NCBI RefSeq assembly: GCF_048403405.1
Contig: NZ_CP183129.1
Length of the DNA stretch: 64,000 bases
DNA from: Escherichia coli
Lineage (GTDB): Bacteria; Pseudomonadota; Gammaproteobacteria; Enterobacterales; Enterobacteriaceae
Direction: 5' to 3' (one strand)
The translations under genes were made by a program, and so were the position numbers. This document shows positions 3,624 through 58,598 of this stretch, piece by piece. The stretch's first letter is position 1. The number at the start of each line of letters is the position of its first letter. Under the pieces are notes generated by a model. It was not told where the DNA came from. It saw only the letters and a program-made list of their open reading frames with translations, and did no database searches.

Positions 3624-4486
3624 CGCTGTGTCTCCAGCCAGTTCAGCCACTGGTCCATCCCTTCGCCGCTGGTGGCGGAAATAAGGATGATTTCAATTTC
3701 TGGATTGACTTCGCGGGCGCAGGCGATGCACTTCTCAACGTCAAAGTTGAGATACGGCAGCAGGTCAACTTTGTTGAGCAGCATCAGCGAGGCGGCGGCA
3801 AACATATGGGGATATTTCAGCGGTTTGTCTTCACCTTCGGTAACGGAAAGCACCGCCACTTTGTGTTTTTCACCGAGATCGAAGCTCGCCGGGCATACAA
3901 GGTTGCCAACGTTTTCGATAAACAGAATACCGTTATCGTCCAGTGGCAGGCGCGGCGCGGCGTCGGCAATCATCTGTGCGTCAAGATGGCAGCCTTTACC
4001 GGTGTTCACCTGAATCGCTGGTGTGCCGGTAGCGCGAATGCGTGCGGCATCGTTCACGGTTTGCTGGTCGCCTTCAATAACCGCGCACGGAACGCTGTCT
4101 TTCAGGCGCATTAAGGTTTCCGTCAGCAGGGTGGTTTTACCGGAACCAGGGCTGGAAACCAGGTTGAGCACCAGTTGCTTGCGGGCAGCAAAGCGCGCGC
4201 GGTTGCGTTCAGCCAGACGGTTGTTTTTGTCCAGCACGTCAATTTCAACTTCCAGCATCCGGCGCTGGCTCATGCCCGGCGCGTGAGTGCCCGCTTCGCC
4301 ATGACCGTAATGCAGGTCGCCTTCTTCAGTCTGGCTGGGGGTAAATTCAGGCGTTTTAATGCCGGTGATTTTCATCTTCGGGCGTGCCGCCGGGGCAAAT
4401 GGCGCGCTACGAAACGCGGAATGAGGGTTATGTTCATCACCCTCGATATACAGGTTGCCTTCACCGCAACCGCATGTTGTACACAT
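3614..4486 (-). CDS. hypB: Hydrogenase nickel-incorporation GTPase HypB (290 aa)
   Basis: [22 protein letters not shown]..., His-rich N-terminus and GTPase P-loop (GSGKTT). Confidence 0.95.
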
Positions 4487-55029: not shown

Positions 55030-55412
55030 AATTCGGTTACTCCTTTACGAACGTTTTCGATATCGCTTTGCGTACCCATGAGTTCAAAGCGGTACAGCCA
55101 CGGCACGCCGCATTTCCGGGCTATCACATCTCCGGCGCGGCCATACGCCTCACCAAAGTTGCGATTACCCGAAGCAATAACGCCGCGCAGCAACACCCGG
55201 TTGTGCTCGTTGTTTAAAAAGCGAATGACCTGTCGTGGCACTGCGCCAGCCGTACCGCCGCCGCCGTAAGAGGGCACGATCAGGATGTAAGGCTCGTCTA
55301 CCTGAATCCGTTCCCGCTCATTGAGCGGGATGCGCACCGCGGGCAGACCTAAACGTTCGATAAAACGCTGCGTGTTTTCGGAGCTACTGGAAAAGTAGAC
55401 GAGCTGGCTCAT
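55002..55412 (-). CDS. nrdI: Flavodoxin-like NrdI (136 aa)
   Basis: [34 protein letters not shown]... Confidence 0.95.
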
Positions 55413-55654
55413 GCACTGGCCGCGTGTGGCGCTGGATGCAGACGATTGATCATGTCCGGGCGGAAACCAGACCAGCTAAGATCGCCAGCAATCACTACCG
55501 GCAACTGACGAAAGCCCTGAGCACGCAGCGCTTCCGCCGCTTCAGGAACGCGATCGACATTAATCATTTCAAAGTCAAAGCCCCGGTTTTCCATCGCCCG
55601 TTTGGTGGCGTGGCACTGAACGCAATCGTTACGAGTGTAAATAGTAATGCGCAT
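55409..55654 (-). CDS. nrdH: Glutaredoxin-like NrdH (81 aa)
   Basis: [34 protein letters not shown]..., CVQC redox motif. Confidence 0.95.
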
Positions 55655-55862
55655 GATTCGTATTTCCGTTTAAAATGAAGATACGGCGCGATGATACGCG
55701 TCGGGTTGTCTCTCTGTTGATACAGAGATACTAGATGTAGTTGAAAAAATATTCAACCATACAAGATATGGGAATTTTAGATTGATTACGCCACCGATGA
55801 ATGGCTCAACGGGGTAGGGGATTTTGTGTTTTTTTGCCGGGCGAATACCCGGCATCAAGAAG

Positions 55863-56294
55863 TTACATCCGCATGGAAACGGCCAGACGGTTAAAACAAT
55901 TCATCAGCCCGATGGCAAACGTTAAGTCGCTGATCTCTGCTGCGCTGAAATGCTCAAGCAAAGGCTGATAAACCTCGTCTTCCGCATGGGTTCTGGCAAT
56001 TTCGGTTACCGATTCCGCCCATGCCAGCGCCGCCCGCTCGCGTTCATCAAAATGATGGCTTACGCGCCAACCTGCCAGGGCGTCCAGTTTGTGCTGTGGC
56101 ACGCCGGATTTGCGCAATGCTTTGCTGTGCATCTCCAGACAAAATGCGCAGCCGTTGATTTGCGAGACGCGCAAATAAACTAACTCCATCAACGTGGTAT
56201 CCAGCGTGCTATTTTCCAGTGCCGTTTTGGCCTGCACTAGTGCGTTATACACTGCCGGGCTAAGTTCGTAGTAAGGCTGACGTAATGTAGTCAT
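55863..56294 (-). CDS. AhpD-like / carboxymuconolactone decarboxylase family protein (143 aa)
   Basis: MTTLRQPYYELSPAVYNALVQAKTALENS...VSQINGCAFCLEMHSK...; CxxC-containing AhpD core motif. To my recollection there is no K-12 counterpart at this position. Confidence 0.75.
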   Translation of the reverse strand: MTTLRQPYYELSPAVYNALVQAKTALENSTLDTTLMELVYLRVSQINGCAFCLEMHSKALRKSGVPQHKLDALAGWRVSHHFDERERAALAWAESVTEIARTHAEDEVYQPLLEHFSAAEISDLTFAIGLMNCFNRLAVSMRM

Positions 56295-56381
56295 ACAGTT
56301 TCTCCTCTTATTAACGCCCGCAATGTAGCACTATAATGGACTGCTAAAGAGAGCCATAAATTACCTAAAAAAGCAGACCAT

Positions 56382-57716
56382 ATGCCGCGCTATCAGGATA
56401 TCGCCCGTCAGTTAAAAACGGCTATTGAGCAAGGGGAACTGAAACCCGGCGCAAGGCTGCCTTCAAGTCGTACCTGGTCGCAGGAGCTGGGGGTGTCTCG
56501 ATCCACTGTCGAAAATGCGTATGCTGAGCTGGTGGCGCAAGGATGGCTGATCAGGCGGGGACAGGCTGGCACATTTGTCAGTGAGCGGATATATCCGCAA
56601 CAATCTACTGTACAAGTTGTAGCTTTTGCCGGTGAAAGTCAGCAACCGTTGCCATTTCAAATGGGATTACCCGCACTCGATCTCTTTCCGCGAGAGCTGT
56701 GGGCGCGGGTGATGGGGCGTCGCCTTCGTACCCAGACGCGCTTTGATTTGGCGTTAGGCGATGTCTGCGGTGAGGTGGCGTTGCGCGAGGCAATAGTTGA
56801 TTACTTACGCGTTTCACGTGGGATTGATTGTCAGCCAGAGCAGGTCTTTATCACTCACGGTTATGCGGCCTCAATAGCTTTAATTCTGCACGCGCTGGCG
56901 AAACCGGGAAACGGGATGTGGATAGAAGATCCCGGCTTTCCACTGATTCGCCCGATTGTCACTCGCCATGATGTGGAAATTTTGCCTGTGCCGGTTGATG
57001 ACAATGGACTGGATATCACAAGCGGAATACAAAATTATCCTGATGCGCGTTTTGCCCTGATAACACCAGCACACCAAAGTCCGCTGGGTGTGGCGCTCTC
57101 TTTAGCGCGCAGGCATCAGATACTGGAATGGGCAGATCGTAGTCAGGCATGGATTATTGAAGATGATTATGACAGTGAGTTTCGCTATCACGGTAAGCCG
57201 TTACCGGCGTTAAAAAGTCTCGACGCACCGCAGCGGGTAATTTATGCCGGAACATTCAGCAAAGCGCTATTTCCTGCATTGCGCTGTGCGTGGCTGGTGT
57301 TGCCGGTGAAGCAAATTGCACAATTCCGCCACCAGGCGTCACTGGCTCCATGTGCGGTACCTGTTCTATGGCAGAACACACTGGCAGACTTTCTTCGCGA
57401 GGGGCATTTCTGGCGGCATCTGAAGAAAATGCGTCAGCATTATGCTCAACGTCGGCAATGGATTGAGCAAGCGTTGACGCAGCAAGGATTTCAGGTTGTG
57501 CCGCAGAAAGGTGGTATCCAGATGGTGATCAGAATGATAGGCGATGATATTGCCCATGCGCGTAAAGCCAATGCTGCAGGCCTTGCGGTGCAGGCACTTA
57601 GCGACTGGCGTATCCGTTCAAGTGGGGAAGGTGGATTACTGCTCTCGTTTACTAATATCGTTAACGAAGGTATGGCGCGACAGGTAGCACAACAATTACG
57701 TAAAGCCTTAAGCTAA
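56382..57716 (+). CDS. MocR/GabR-type transcriptional regulator (GntR HTH + PLP aminotransferase-like domain, 444 aa)
   Basis: MPRYQDIARQLKTAIEQGELKPGARLPSSRTWSQELGVSRSTVENAYAELVAQGWL... (GntR HTH) followed by an aminotransferase class I-like domain (...GTFSKALFPALRCAWLV..., K of SK being the predicted PLP lysine); divergent from the AhpD-like gene. Confidence 0.75.
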   Translation: MPRYQDIARQLKTAIEQGELKPGARLPSSRTWSQELGVSRSTVENAYAELVAQGWLIRRGQAGTFVSERIYPQQSTVQVVAFAGESQQPLPFQMGLPALDLFPRELWARVMGRRLRTQTRFDLALGDVCGEVALREAIVDYLRVSRGIDCQPEQVFITHGYAASIALILHALAKPGNGMWIEDPGFPLIRPIVTRHDVEILPVPVDDNGLDITSGIQNYPDARFALITPAHQSPLGVALSLARRHQILEWADRSQAWIIEDDYDSEFRYHGKPLPALKSLDAPQRVIYAGTFSKALFPALRCAWLVLPVKQIAQFRHQASLAPCAVPVLWQNTLADFLREGHFWRHLKKMRQHYAQRRQWIEQALTQQGFQVVPQKGGIQMVIRMIGDDIAHARKANAAGLAVQALSDWRIRSSGEGGLLLSFTNIVNEGMARQVAQQLRKALS

Positions 57717-57741
57717 AAAACCCCGAAGCCAGGCTTCGGGG
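57715..57741. terminator. Hairpin terminator between convergent MocR-like gene and ygaM
   Basis: aaaaaaCCCCGAAGCcagGCTTCGGGGtt; read on the minus strand the hairpin is followed by a U6 run (ygaM terminator). Confidence 0.65.
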
Positions 57742-57772
57742 TTAAAGACGCGTATTTATTATCATTTTTGCA

Positions 57773-58102
57773 CTACGATTTGCGCATGCTTAACAGTGCG
57801 CCGATAAAAATACCTACCGCAGCTGCTGTACCCACGCTACACCAGGGTCTTTCACGAACAAAAGAATCCGCGCAGCCAACGGCATCGCGCGCGGCTTGCT
57901 GGACGCGAGTACGACCATGCATTCGCGCCCTGGTTTCTTTCAGTAGAGCCTGCGCTTTACTGCGTGCGGCTTCAGCTTCCCCTTTAGCGTCGCTGCCCCA
58001 GGACTTCAATACAGATTCGAGGCTATCAGCTAATTGATTGACATCATTCTGGATATCCTGCACGCCATCATCAACGTCGTTGCGGTTCGGTCGGTTAAAC
58101 AT
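57773..58102 (-). CDS. ygaM: ElaB/YqjD/YgaM-family ribosome- and membrane-associated protein (DUF883, 109 aa)
   Basis: MFNRPNRNDVDDGVQDIQNDVNQLADSLESVLKSWGSDAKGEAEAARSKAQ..., C-terminal TM anchor; the track ORF starts 4 codons earlier. Confidence 0.88.
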   Translation of the reverse strand: MFNRPNRNDVDDGVQDIQNDVNQLADSLESVLKSWGSDAKGEAEAARSKAQALLKETRARMHGRTRVQQAARDAVGCADSFVRERPWCSVGTAAAVGIFIGALLSMRKS

Positions 58103-58253
58103 ATGATCCCCCATTAGAATTCGATGTAATTTTCAGTGTAGACCATAATTTTCTTAACTGAGGTTCATCGCGGCTTTATGGACTTTTCTGAAAGCGTTGT
58201 GAATGCGCAATCAGGTAAGGTAGGCCCGCGGTTGATAATAACGAGGATCAAAT

Positions 58254-58598
58254 ATGTATTTACGACCAGACGAGGTGGCGCGCGTACTTGAAAAAGTCGG
58301 TTTTACTGTCGATGTGGTAACCCAGAAGGCTTATGGTTACCGCCGTGGGGAAAACTATGTCTATGTTAATCGCGAAGCGCGAATGGGACGTACCGCCCTG
58401 GTGATTCATCCAACATTAAAAGAACGTAGTTCAACACTGGCTGAACCCGCTTCCGATATTAAAACTTGCGATCATTATCAACAATTTCCGCTCTATTTAG
58501 CAGGCGAGCGACACGAGCATTACGGTATCCCCCATGGCTTTAGTTCGCGTGTTGCGCTTGAACGTTATTTGAATGGTTTATTTGGCGAAGCCAGTTAA
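58254..58598 (+). CDS. ygaC: Uncharacterized protein YgaC (114 aa)
   Basis: [53 protein letters not shown]... Confidence 0.85.

Follow-up and report, generated by a model that had tools for sequence, protein, structure and literature searches.

The closest described system to the locus reported here is the regulog 'Spro_3719 - Enterobacteriales', predicted by comparative genomics (Suvorova and Rodionov, 2016, Microb Genom; PMC5320631), whose members STM2803 (Salmonella LT2), CKO_04020, Ent638_0497, ECA2654, Spro_3719 and a gene of Klebsiella MGH 78578 each have a COG2128 target. In the same work COG2128 appeared in 53 MocR regulons, and PA0268, of a related group, has PA0269 as its predicted target (PMC5320631). 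The pairing of a MocR regulator with an AhpD-like gene is already known, then, as a published predicted regulon. Literature searches on MocR with carboxymuconolactone decarboxylase (CMD) or AhpD, on STM2803, STM2804, PA0268 and 7XW1, and on ECs3534, ECs3535, Z3973 and Z3974 found no experimental study of the pair, and functional information was not found in papers citing PA0269 or in one listing PA0268. The matches consisted only of the 2016 comparative-genomics paper, one mention of z3974, and the use of Salmonella STM2804, described as having 'no known function', as a neutral marker-insertion site in mouse-passage work (PMC3723669). That use argues against a large role in the mouse-passage setting.

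Here, we describe such a pair in a 64,000-nucleotide stretch of Escherichia coli DNA (hereafter, the window). We consider it very probable that the pair is a two-gene regulatory unit which Enterobacteriaceae have inherited vertically; this judgement concerns what the unit is and how its regulation is arranged.

The two genes and their products

A sequence-only reading of the window had proposed a divergent pair of genes, encoding 143 and 444 amino acids and separated by an 87-bp spacer at 56295-56381. The open reading frame list agreed with it exactly:

55863-56294, minus strand: CMD-family, AhpD-like gene of the PA0269 type, 143 aa (ORF, Pfam, NCBIfam and PDB matches)
56382-57716, plus strand: gene for a MocR-subfamily regulator, 444 aa (ORF, Pfam and PDB matches)

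Domain searches supported the family proposed for each protein. Pfam CMD (PF02627) matched the 143-aa protein with an E-value of 5e-21, the NCBIfam model for the AhpD core domain (ahpD_dom, TIGR00778) scored 54.9 bits against a cut-off of 27.8, and the PDB matches were 2IJC/2O4D/7XW1 (PA0269; E 3e-31) and 2GMY (E 7e-30). The protein carries the motif SQINGCAFCLEMH, in which the CxxC is C49-A-F-C52 (encoded at 56139-56150), and H56 is encoded at 56127-56129. C49, C52, and H56 were invariant in 62 homologues and E37 was kept in 44 of them, while Phe51, which replaces Tyr50 of the PA0269 proton relay, was Phe in 50 of the 62. The CMD gene product is predicted to be a CxxC thiol oxidoreductase, small and all-helical, of the PA0269/AhpD-like kind, and it would likely serve to reduce peroxide or some other reactive oxidant or electrophile. 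PA0269 itself shows weak, thiol-dependent reduction of H2O2 (PMC3141380). In relatives, the divergent operon also includes a GNAT acetyltransferase and an FMN azoreductase-like gene, partners that fit a theme of detoxification. PcaC (4-carboxymuconolactone decarboxylase) was considered as an identity and rejected, there being no PcaC family among the NCBIfam matches, and the neighbours being nrdH and the regulator.

The regulator consists of a winged HTH at residues 4-66 (Pfam GntR, PF00392; E 1e-17) and a fold-type-I aminotransferase-like domain at about 100-444 (Pfam Aminotran_1_2, PF00155, residues 126-386; E 2e-25). Its full-length matches among solved structures were Bacillus clausii PdxR (7PQ9; E 1e-62, 215 bits) and Bacillus subtilis GabR (4N0B; E 6e-55, 190 bits). 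The putative PLP lysine, K294 (codon 57261-57263), aligns with K312 of GabR; K294, D261, Y263, and D264 were invariant in all 78 regulator homologues, and R301 was present in 74 of the 78. By its domains and residues, the protein belongs to the MocR subfamily of GntR transcription factors, with predicted PLP binding.

In some genomes, recent RefSeq annotation names this gene pdxR, which would make its product a PLP sensor that controls the synthesis or salvage of vitamin B6, with the CMD gene as a bystander. We consider this quite unlikely. The NCBIfam equivalog model NF052282 'PdxR' does score 408 bits against a cut-off of 320, the top solved-structure match is 7PQ9, and PLP itself is possible as the effector. 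However, the cut-off of NF052282 is not specific, since homologues facing GNAT-azoreductase-CMD or GNAT-CMD operons score 423-427, one of them scoring higher still on the rhizopine MocR model, and the match to GabR is nearly as good as that to PdxR (190 vs. 215 bits). In every enterobacterial locus the gene that shares the operator is the CMD/AhpD-like gene rather than pdxS/pdxT or a salvage gene, and the interval from nrdI to ygaC is without a B6 gene. E. coli itself lacks pdxST and makes PLP by the DXP-dependent PdxA/PdxJ route. Moreover, these regulators fall in the Spro_3719 group, apart from the PdxR groups of Suvorova and Rodionov (PMC5320631). The name 'PdxR', which gene context does not support, is probably an over-annotation that is now spreading in RefSeq, and flagging it is one outcome of this work.

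Distribution and history of the pair

The distance from nrdH to ygaM is 2118 bp in the present strain, as against 247 bp in K-12 MG1655, which has neither the CMD gene nor the MocR gene. Both the interval of about 2.1 kb and the absence of the two genes from K-12 had been anticipated in the sequence-only reading. Junction alignment placed clear edges on the segment missing from K-12 at ~55830 (left) and ~57716 (right), and a hairpin lies at or near each edge:

55835-55854, minus strand: 8-bp GC hairpin just 3' of the CMD stop codon (fold, cross-genus comparison and junction alignment)
57719-57743, minus strand: ygaM terminator, a GC-rich hairpin followed by a T-run (terminator scan; common to K-12)

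The terminator stands just past the regulator stop codon and forms the right edge of the missing segment, and the hairpin, whose stem is followed on the sense strand by A7 without a T-run, stands near the left edge. In K-12, 18 nt remain (ATTCACCAGGCAAAAAGA) that resemble the post-CMD hairpin in inverted orientation, and no simple one-step deletion that would give the K-12 junction could be derived from the junction alignment. Rfam, searched at a permissive threshold over 55400-58300, gave no match.

To place the locus in E. coli as a whole, we surveyed 5426 complete genomes. Of these, 5421 contained the flanks, 1387 at least a portion of the pair, and 1276 both genes in full with intact reading frames; in about 111 further genomes, a 589-bp deletion has taken away the start and the DNA-binding domain of the regulator. 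All copies are chromosomal and single. Carriers include B2-type strains such as UTI89, CFT073, and Nissle 1917, as well as O157:H7. The order nrdI-nrdH-CMD-MocR-ygaM-ygaC also occurs in E. albertii, Citrobacter, Pseudocitrobacter, Cedecea, Pseudescherichia, Shimwellia, Pluralibacter, Enterobacter spp., and Rahnella. Since this gene order is common to other enterobacterial genera, the K-12 state is a deletion, and the pair is ancestral to Enterobacteriaceae at the nrdH-ygaM position rather than inserted there; on this comparison, the unit has been deleted by K-12 and about 75% of E. coli. Ratios of dN/dS were 0.03-0.09 for the CMD gene (about 0.07 between E. coli alleles) and 0.06-0.12 for the regulator gene (about 0.1 between E. 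coli alleles), values that indicate purifying selection on both.

We give very little credence to the view that the 1.9 kb arrived by horizontal transfer, as an islet that was inserted beside nrdH in some E. coli lineages. Its presence is indeed patchy (1276-1387 of the 5426 genomes), and B2-type strains and O157 have regulator alleles that are ~8-10% apart at the DNA level, with a dS of 0.41 compared to 0.087 for neighbour genes, which shows some recombination or old polymorphism. However, E. albertii and more than 10 other enterobacterial genera carry both genes, identically placed and oriented, in the nrdH-ygaM interval, and divergence of the pair roughly tracks that of the flanking genes. 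Mobility genes, a tRNA, and flanking direct repeats are all absent at the locus, and no copy is other than chromosomal and single.

A functional tie to the class Ib ribonucleotide reductase operon nrdHIEF, either through the CMD protein, which under oxidative or iron stress might protect the reductase or act as its redox partner, or through transcription feeding into the operon, likewise seems hardly tenable. It is true that in many Enterobacteriaceae nrdHIEF is preceded on its own strand by the CMD gene, that the post-CMD hairpin of E. coli, followed by A7 and not by a T-run, is not a canonical terminator, and that thiol redox chemistry is common to both, NrdH being a glutaredoxin-like protein. 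However, a canonical terminator (hairpin plus T7) separates the CMD gene from nrdH in some genera (three loci), the promoter-proximal 110 bp of nrdH are identical with or without the pair, and nrdHIEF runs without it in K-12 and about 75% of E. coli. Outside Enterobacterales (Rahnella excepted), regulator and CMD gene occur together without nrd genes. The proximity is most simply explained as inherited gene order.

That the pair is a decaying remnant without current function, as its loss from most E. coli and the about 111 genomes with the 589-bp deletion of the regulator start and DNA-binding domain might suggest, is scarcely plausible in view of the intact frames in 1276 genomes, the dN/dS between alleles within E. 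coli (regulator, about 0.1; CMD, 0.07), and the intact catalytic residues, PLP residues, and operator.

Control region and proposed working of the unit

The 87-bp spacer had been singled out, from the divergent arrangement, as the place for a MocR operator, and comparison across genomes did locate a conserved, multi-box predicted operator there. Alignment of the spacer from 26 enterobacterial loci showed conserved blocks within otherwise variable sequence, and these define a predicted 46-bp, three-box site at 56336-56381, ATGGACTGC-N4-GAGAGCCAT-N15-GCAGACCAT. The elements of the region are:

56295-56381, no strand assigned: divergent control region, 87 bp (alignment of 26 enterobacterial loci)
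56330-56337, no strand assigned: candidate face-to-face, overlapping -10-like hexamers (read from the sequence)
56336-56344, plus strand: operator box 1, ATGGACTGC, family consensus ATGGnCT (ATGG invariant in the 26 aligned loci)
56349-56357, minus strand: operator box 2, GAGAGCCAT (plus-strand letters), family consensus AGrGCCAw (GCCAT invariant in the 26 loci)
56373-56381, minus strand: operator box 3, GCAGACCAT (plus-strand letters), family consensus AGnCCAT (conserved CCAT block, 46-bp pattern and consensus)

Box 3, which abuts the regulator ATG, is the inverted partner of box 1, and box 2 has the orientation of box 3, from which it lies 24 bp away (CCAT to CCAT), and is inverted relative to box 1. 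Two like-oriented boxes with one inverted is the commonest structure of MocR motifs, being found in 32% of regulons (PMC5320631). Of 80 homologous regulators, 50, with identities as low as 41%, had the three-box, 46-bp spacing upstream, compared to 4 of 1905 control pieces, and across 51 sites A15 and G16, neither of which is fixed by the search pattern, carried 2.0 and 1.6 bits, respectively. Within the window the whole 46-bp pattern occurred once, and it occurred in none of 100 shuffles. Measured between their centres, the boxes stand 15, 24, and 39 bp apart, distances that do not correspond to whole turns of the helix. A generic repeat search of 56280-56400 reported only a 10-nt pair, CGTAATGTAG / CGCAATGTAG, and none of the three boxes, because these are too short and imperfect for detection in one sequence. 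In the present sequence alone the three predicted boxes are without significance, and their support comes from the comparison across genomes.

Two candidate -10 elements overlap face to face in the spacer: TATAAT at 56332-56337 on the plus strand for the regulator gene, and TATAGT at 56335-56330 on the minus strand for the CMD gene. The block GCACTATAATGG is conserved in most Enterobacteriaceae. Since a scan with the sigma-70 consensus returned no full -35/-10 promoter in the spacer, we infer these promoter positions. The regulator, as a dimer, would most likely bind the 46-bp site through its GntR winged helix, so that box 1 would lie on both overlapping -10 elements, box 2 at the would-be -35 of the CMD promoter, and box 3 against the regulator start codon. 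From this layout of boxes and promoters, the regulator is expected to repress its own gene.

An effector that reacts with the bound PLP is the established switch for GabR, PdxR, and TauR; in B. clausii PdxR, PLP on its own shifts binding from box to box. By the same logic, an amino compound, or PLP itself, may react with PLP held in the aminotransferase-like sensor domain, upon which the regulator would switch the divergent CMD gene, most likely by activating it, although activation is only slightly favoured over repression. Once made, the CMD protein would reduce peroxide or another reactive oxidant or electrophile. It is conceivable, though rather unlikely, that regulators of this clade sense a reactive small molecule through their bound PLP, such as a hydroxylamine, an aromatic amine, or a toxin that reacts with carbonyls or PLP, and induce a thiol detoxification enzyme in response. 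If true, this would be a signal class so far undescribed for MocR regulators, and the natural variants of E. coli (pair present, 589-bp deletion in the regulator, pair absent) would provide a ready-made test set for it.

Significance and comparison with known systems

These results leave our understanding of MocR regulators and AhpD-like proteins unchanged, and their importance is modest. They do, however, show that many pathogenic E. coli (B2-type, O157:H7) possess a third MocR regulator that is missing from the K-12 model, and that the K-12 arrangement is the derived state. They also define a predicted 46-bp operator that can be tested and identify natural regulator-null strains, i.e., those with the 589-bp deletion, of which SCU-485 is an example.

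In the Spro_3719 regulog, as here, a MocR regulator and a COG2128/PF02627 AhpD-like gene are divergently arranged. Citrobacter and other genera carry the pair at the chromosomal position of the E. coli pair, and STM2804 of Salmonella, ~5 kb from stpA, fits the same locus. Most likely, the pair of the regulog and that of E. coli are orthologous. E. coli is missing from the regulog because the 2016 study used K-12, which is without the pair. The boxes described above were derived independently of the published Spro_3719 motif.

Like the present regulator, GabR (B. subtilis) and PdxR (B. clausii) are built of two domains and have the PLP lysine (K294 here, K312 in GabR). They also share with it a divergent target gene and, between the genes, an operator (predicted here) that has multiple boxes, spans about 46-48 bp and overlaps the regulator's own promoter (PMC5320631, and as established for GabR and PdxR). 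However, the matches are distant (190 and 215 bits), the target here is a thiol oxidoreductase gene rather than gabTD or pdxST, and the box, ATGGnCT, differs. Mycobacterium tuberculosis AhpD, the alkylhydroperoxidase that reduces AhpC, has the CMD fold family and the CxxC-plus-His active-site motif in common with the CMD protein. In contrast, the present chain is shorter (143 aa). A true AhpD acting with AhpC was rejected, since the AhpD model TIGR00777 gives only 30.9 bits against a cut-off of 192 and there is no ahpC in the neighbourhood. The CxxC motif, moreover, lies in N-terminal helices here and not C-terminally as in AhpD, an arrangement described for PA0269 (PMC3141380).

The P. aeruginosa protein PA0269 is 41% identical to the CMD protein over its full length, with the Glu, the Cys-x-x-Cys, and the His kept and Tyr50 corresponding to Phe51, and it is likewise paired with a predicted MocR regulator, PA0268. 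Several homologous Pseudomonas loci, PA0268 not among them, share the three-box spacing. However, the regulators of those loci are only about 45-49% identical to the present one, PA0268 forms a separate orthologous group (Suvorova and Rodionov; PMC5320631), and in Pseudomonas the operon often contains cupin, GNAT, or azoreductase genes as well.

The CMD-MocR gene pair and its distribution in E. coli

Between nrdH and ygaM, separated in the window by 2118 bp, lie a gene of the carboxymuconolactone decarboxylase (CMD) family and, divergently, a gene for a MocR-type regulator. Their ORFs match exactly the positions assigned in the earlier, sequence-only reading:

55835-55854: GC hairpin beyond the end of the CMD gene, with A7 following on the sense strand
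55863-56294, minus strand: CMD gene, ORF of 143 aa, including SQINGCAFCLEMH
56295-56381: spacer between the CMD and regulator genes, 87 bp
56382-57716, plus strand: regulator gene, ORF of 444 aa

That reading had also called the proteins AhpD-like and MocR-type, and a Pfam domain search upheld both assignments: the 143-aa protein belongs to the CMD family (PF02627, E 5e-21), and the 444-aa protein combines a GntR winged helix (residues 4-66, E 1e-17) with an Aminotran_1_2 domain (E 2e-25). Regulator residue K294 aligns with the PLP lysine of GabR, K312, and is invariant, with D261, Y263, and D264, in regulator homologues (n = 78). C49, C52, and H56 are invariant in CMD homologues (n = 62), and E37 is found in 44 of them. 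In comparisons between E. coli alleles, E. albertii, and Citrobacter, the regulator had a dN/dS of 0.06-0.12 and the CMD gene one of 0.03-0.09, values resembling that of nrdI. Judged from their sequences, both genes of the pair are maintained.

In K-12 MG1655, nrdH and ygaM are direct neighbours with a gap of 247 bp, as stated in the sequence-only reading, and both pair genes are missing. That reading had proposed a presence/absence survey, which placed the pair in a minority of genomes. The flanking DNA was found in 5421 of 5426 complete E. coli genomes, any part of the pair in 1387, and the full pair in 1276; all copies were single and chromosomal. Two allele classes were present, one at least 99% identical to the window (1007 genomes, including UTI89, CFT073, and Nissle 1917) and one ~92% identical (365 genomes; O157:H7 and relatives). 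The O157:H7 genes are ECs_3534 and ECs_3535, annotated 'transcriptional regulator' and 'alkylhydroperoxidase'. Between the window and the O157:H7 locus (L002), dS reached 0.41 in the regulator (56382-57716; L002 2483-3817), compared with 0.087 in the CMD gene and 0.086 in nrdI; the regulator gene is far more diverged between B2-type strains and O157 than the adjoining genes. This excess suggests a long-standing polymorphism or the import of an allele, in either case limited to the regulator gene. O157:H7 also carries ~94 additional bases between the regulator stop codon and ygaM (L002 ~3850-3960) that are absent from the window and K-12, and the 3' end of its ygaM differs in DNA.

Ancestry of the locus and its nrdHIEF neighbourhood

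Relatives of the regulator were scanned in one genome per species and neighbouring proteins then located by tblastn. The order nrdI-nrdH-CMD-MocR-ygaM-ygaC was found in E. albertii, Pseudocitrobacter, Cedecea, Pseudescherichia, Shimwellia, Pluralibacter, Rahnella, and several Enterobacter-labelled genomes; three Citrobacter species had the same gene order without a ygaM match. Across these relatives the identity of the regulator protein declines gradually, from 90% to 47%. The simplest reading of these comparisons is that the common ancestor already had the pair at the nrdH-ygaM site and that K-12 and most E. coli descend from a lineage that lost it by deletion; an insertion was rejected on the gene order shared across enterobacterial genera. 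In Salmonella, STM2803 is given as a MocR regulator with a COG2128 target (Suvorova and Rodionov, 2016; PMC5320631) and STM2804 lies, according to the literature, ~5 kb from stpA; these published listings fit STM2803/STM2804 being the same locus.

The segment missing from K-12 has its edges at ~55830 and ~57716, the right edge directly before a ygaM terminator common to K-12. No simple one-step deletion could be derived from a comparison of the window with the K-12 locus (L001). The 18 nt remaining at the K-12 junction (L001 ~1925-1945), ATTCACCAGGCAAAAAGA, resemble the opposite-strand reading of the CMD hairpin (window 55830-55855), ATTCGCCCGGCAAAAA, so the loss may not have been a simple one-step deletion. 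Nearby, the stretch 55766-55810, just upstream of the conserved promoter-proximal 110 bp of nrdH, is strongly diverged between the window and K-12, and the motif ACGGGGTAGGGG that follows it is common to both.

Functional coupling of the pair to nrdHIEF is unlikely. Its sole hint is the hairpin at 55835-55854, which, with A7 after it and, on the other strand, T7 before it, is not a canonical terminator in either direction. However, most E. coli lack the pair and still have a working nrdHIEF, the adjacency is kept in Enterobacteriaceae and Rahnella but not beyond, and some other genera (including Pseudocitrobacter and Rahnella) have a proper hairpin and T-run at the equivalent place.

The regulator's name and the CMD enzyme

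Systems of this kind are known. COG2128 (AhpD family/CMD) genes occur in 53 MocR regulons in the supplement of Suvorova and Rodionov (2016; PMC5320631), who defined the groups 'Spro_3719', with an Enterobacteriales regulog, and 'PA0268'. E. coli is not part of the Spro_3719 regulog because that study represented the species by K-12, whose MocR regulators number only two. A literature search found no experimental paper on any member of the group. The pair is therefore real, was correctly read from sequence, with an interpretation that is supported overall, and had already been described as a prediction.

Newer RefSeq/PGAP annotation names the regulator 'pdxR: MocR-like pyridoxine biosynthesis transcription factor PdxR', because its score with NCBIfam model NF052282, 408 bits, exceeds the cut-off of 320. 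This name finds no support in the gene context: the gene under its predicted control is no B6 gene, the same model gives 423-427 on homologues facing GNAT-azoreductase-CMD or GNAT-CMD operons, and one such homologue scores still higher on the rhizopine MocR model. Moreover, E. coli is not known to have pdxST. These results indicate that the name 'PdxR' is an over-annotation.

Among solved structures, the CMD protein is nearest to P. aeruginosa PA0269 (41% identity, E 3e-31) and to Atu0492. The all-helical, AhpD-like PA0269 has a Glu/Cys/Tyr/Cys/His relay and reduces H2O2 weakly, in a thiol-dependent manner (PMC3141380). In the E. coli protein, as in most homologues, the relay Tyr is replaced by Phe51. 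A true AhpD was ruled out (30.9 bits against a cut-off of 192; no adjoining ahpC). The divergent operon of relatives from Pseudomonas and Pectobacterium includes a GNAT acetyltransferase gene as well, joined in Pseudomonas by an FMN azoreductase-like gene, in agreement with the partner families COG1182, PF00583, and COG1917 of the 2016 study (PMC5320631). The predicted theme of these operons is detoxification or redox chemistry. Among 16 O157 lysate proteins captured by a salicylidene acylhydrazide affinity reagent was z3974, whose Far Western signal was absent or very weak (PMC3191033); going by the order of the locus tags, this could be the CMD protein.

A predicted three-box operator and models of control

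The sequence-only reading had pointed to the spacer as the obvious site for a MocR operator. Aligning the spacers of 26 enterobacterial loci revealed three conserved blocks at fixed spacing, the remaining sequence being variable:

56336-56344: box 1, ATGGACTGC
56349-56357: box 2, GAGAGCCAT
56373-56381: box 3, GCAGACCAT

Box 1 is the inverted counterpart of box 3 (ATGGnCT ... AGnCCAT), and box 2 (AGrGCCAw) is oriented as box 3, 24 bp away from it. The commonest MocR motif structure is two boxes of the same orientation plus one inverted, typically with a TGG core (PMC5320631). The 46-bp pattern occurred once in the 64-kb window and in 0 of 100 shuffles. With exactly the same spacing, a relaxed pattern preceded 50 of 80 homologous regulators, some with a protein identity as low as 41%, including Pseudomonas, Cupriavidus, Paraburkholderia, and Bradyrhizobium loci; among control pieces of the same loci it occurred in 4 of 1905. 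Positions left free by the search were strongly conserved as well (e.g. A15, 2.0 bits, and G41, 1.9 bits; 51 sites). The proposed site is supported by the comparison between loci; in the single spacer sequence the boxes are too weak for a generic repeat search, which did not pick them up. A 10-nt direct repeat, CGTAATGTAG (56281-56290) and CGCAATGTAG (56319-56328), 38 bp apart, has one copy within the first CMD codons; since other genera conserve the second only in part, the repeat is probably due to chance.

Coverage of the pair was partial in ~111 complete E. coli genomes, and in all five of those sampled it was an identical 69%. Strain SCU-485, the sole genome aligned, has a 589-bp deletion (window 56381-56969) flanked by two CCAT tetramers, which removes the start codon and DNA-binding domain of the regulator and keeps the CMD gene and all three boxes. 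Such strains are, consequently, natural regulator-null strains.

Box 1 overlaps a perfect TATAAT (56332-56337, plus strand), whose minus-strand mirror, TATAGT, is a plausible -10 element for the CMD gene; a consensus scan found no complete promoter in the spacer. With respect to the putative CMD promoter, the expected positions are between -10 and -35 for box 1, on the -35 for box 2, and near -55 for box 3. At the putative regulator promoter, box 1 would cover the -10 and the transcription start, with boxes 2 and 3 in a short leader. Box 3 touches the regulator ATG, and most relatives use the ATG within CCATG as start codon. It seems rather improbable that regulators of this clade sense a reactive amine or electrophile through PLP. 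GabR and PdxR are repressors of their own genes and, once an effector reacts with the bound PLP, activators of the divergent gene. The arrangement of boxes and putative promoters here resembles theirs and, on this likeness, we lean slightly towards autorepression with effector-dependent activation of the CMD gene, rather than simple repression.
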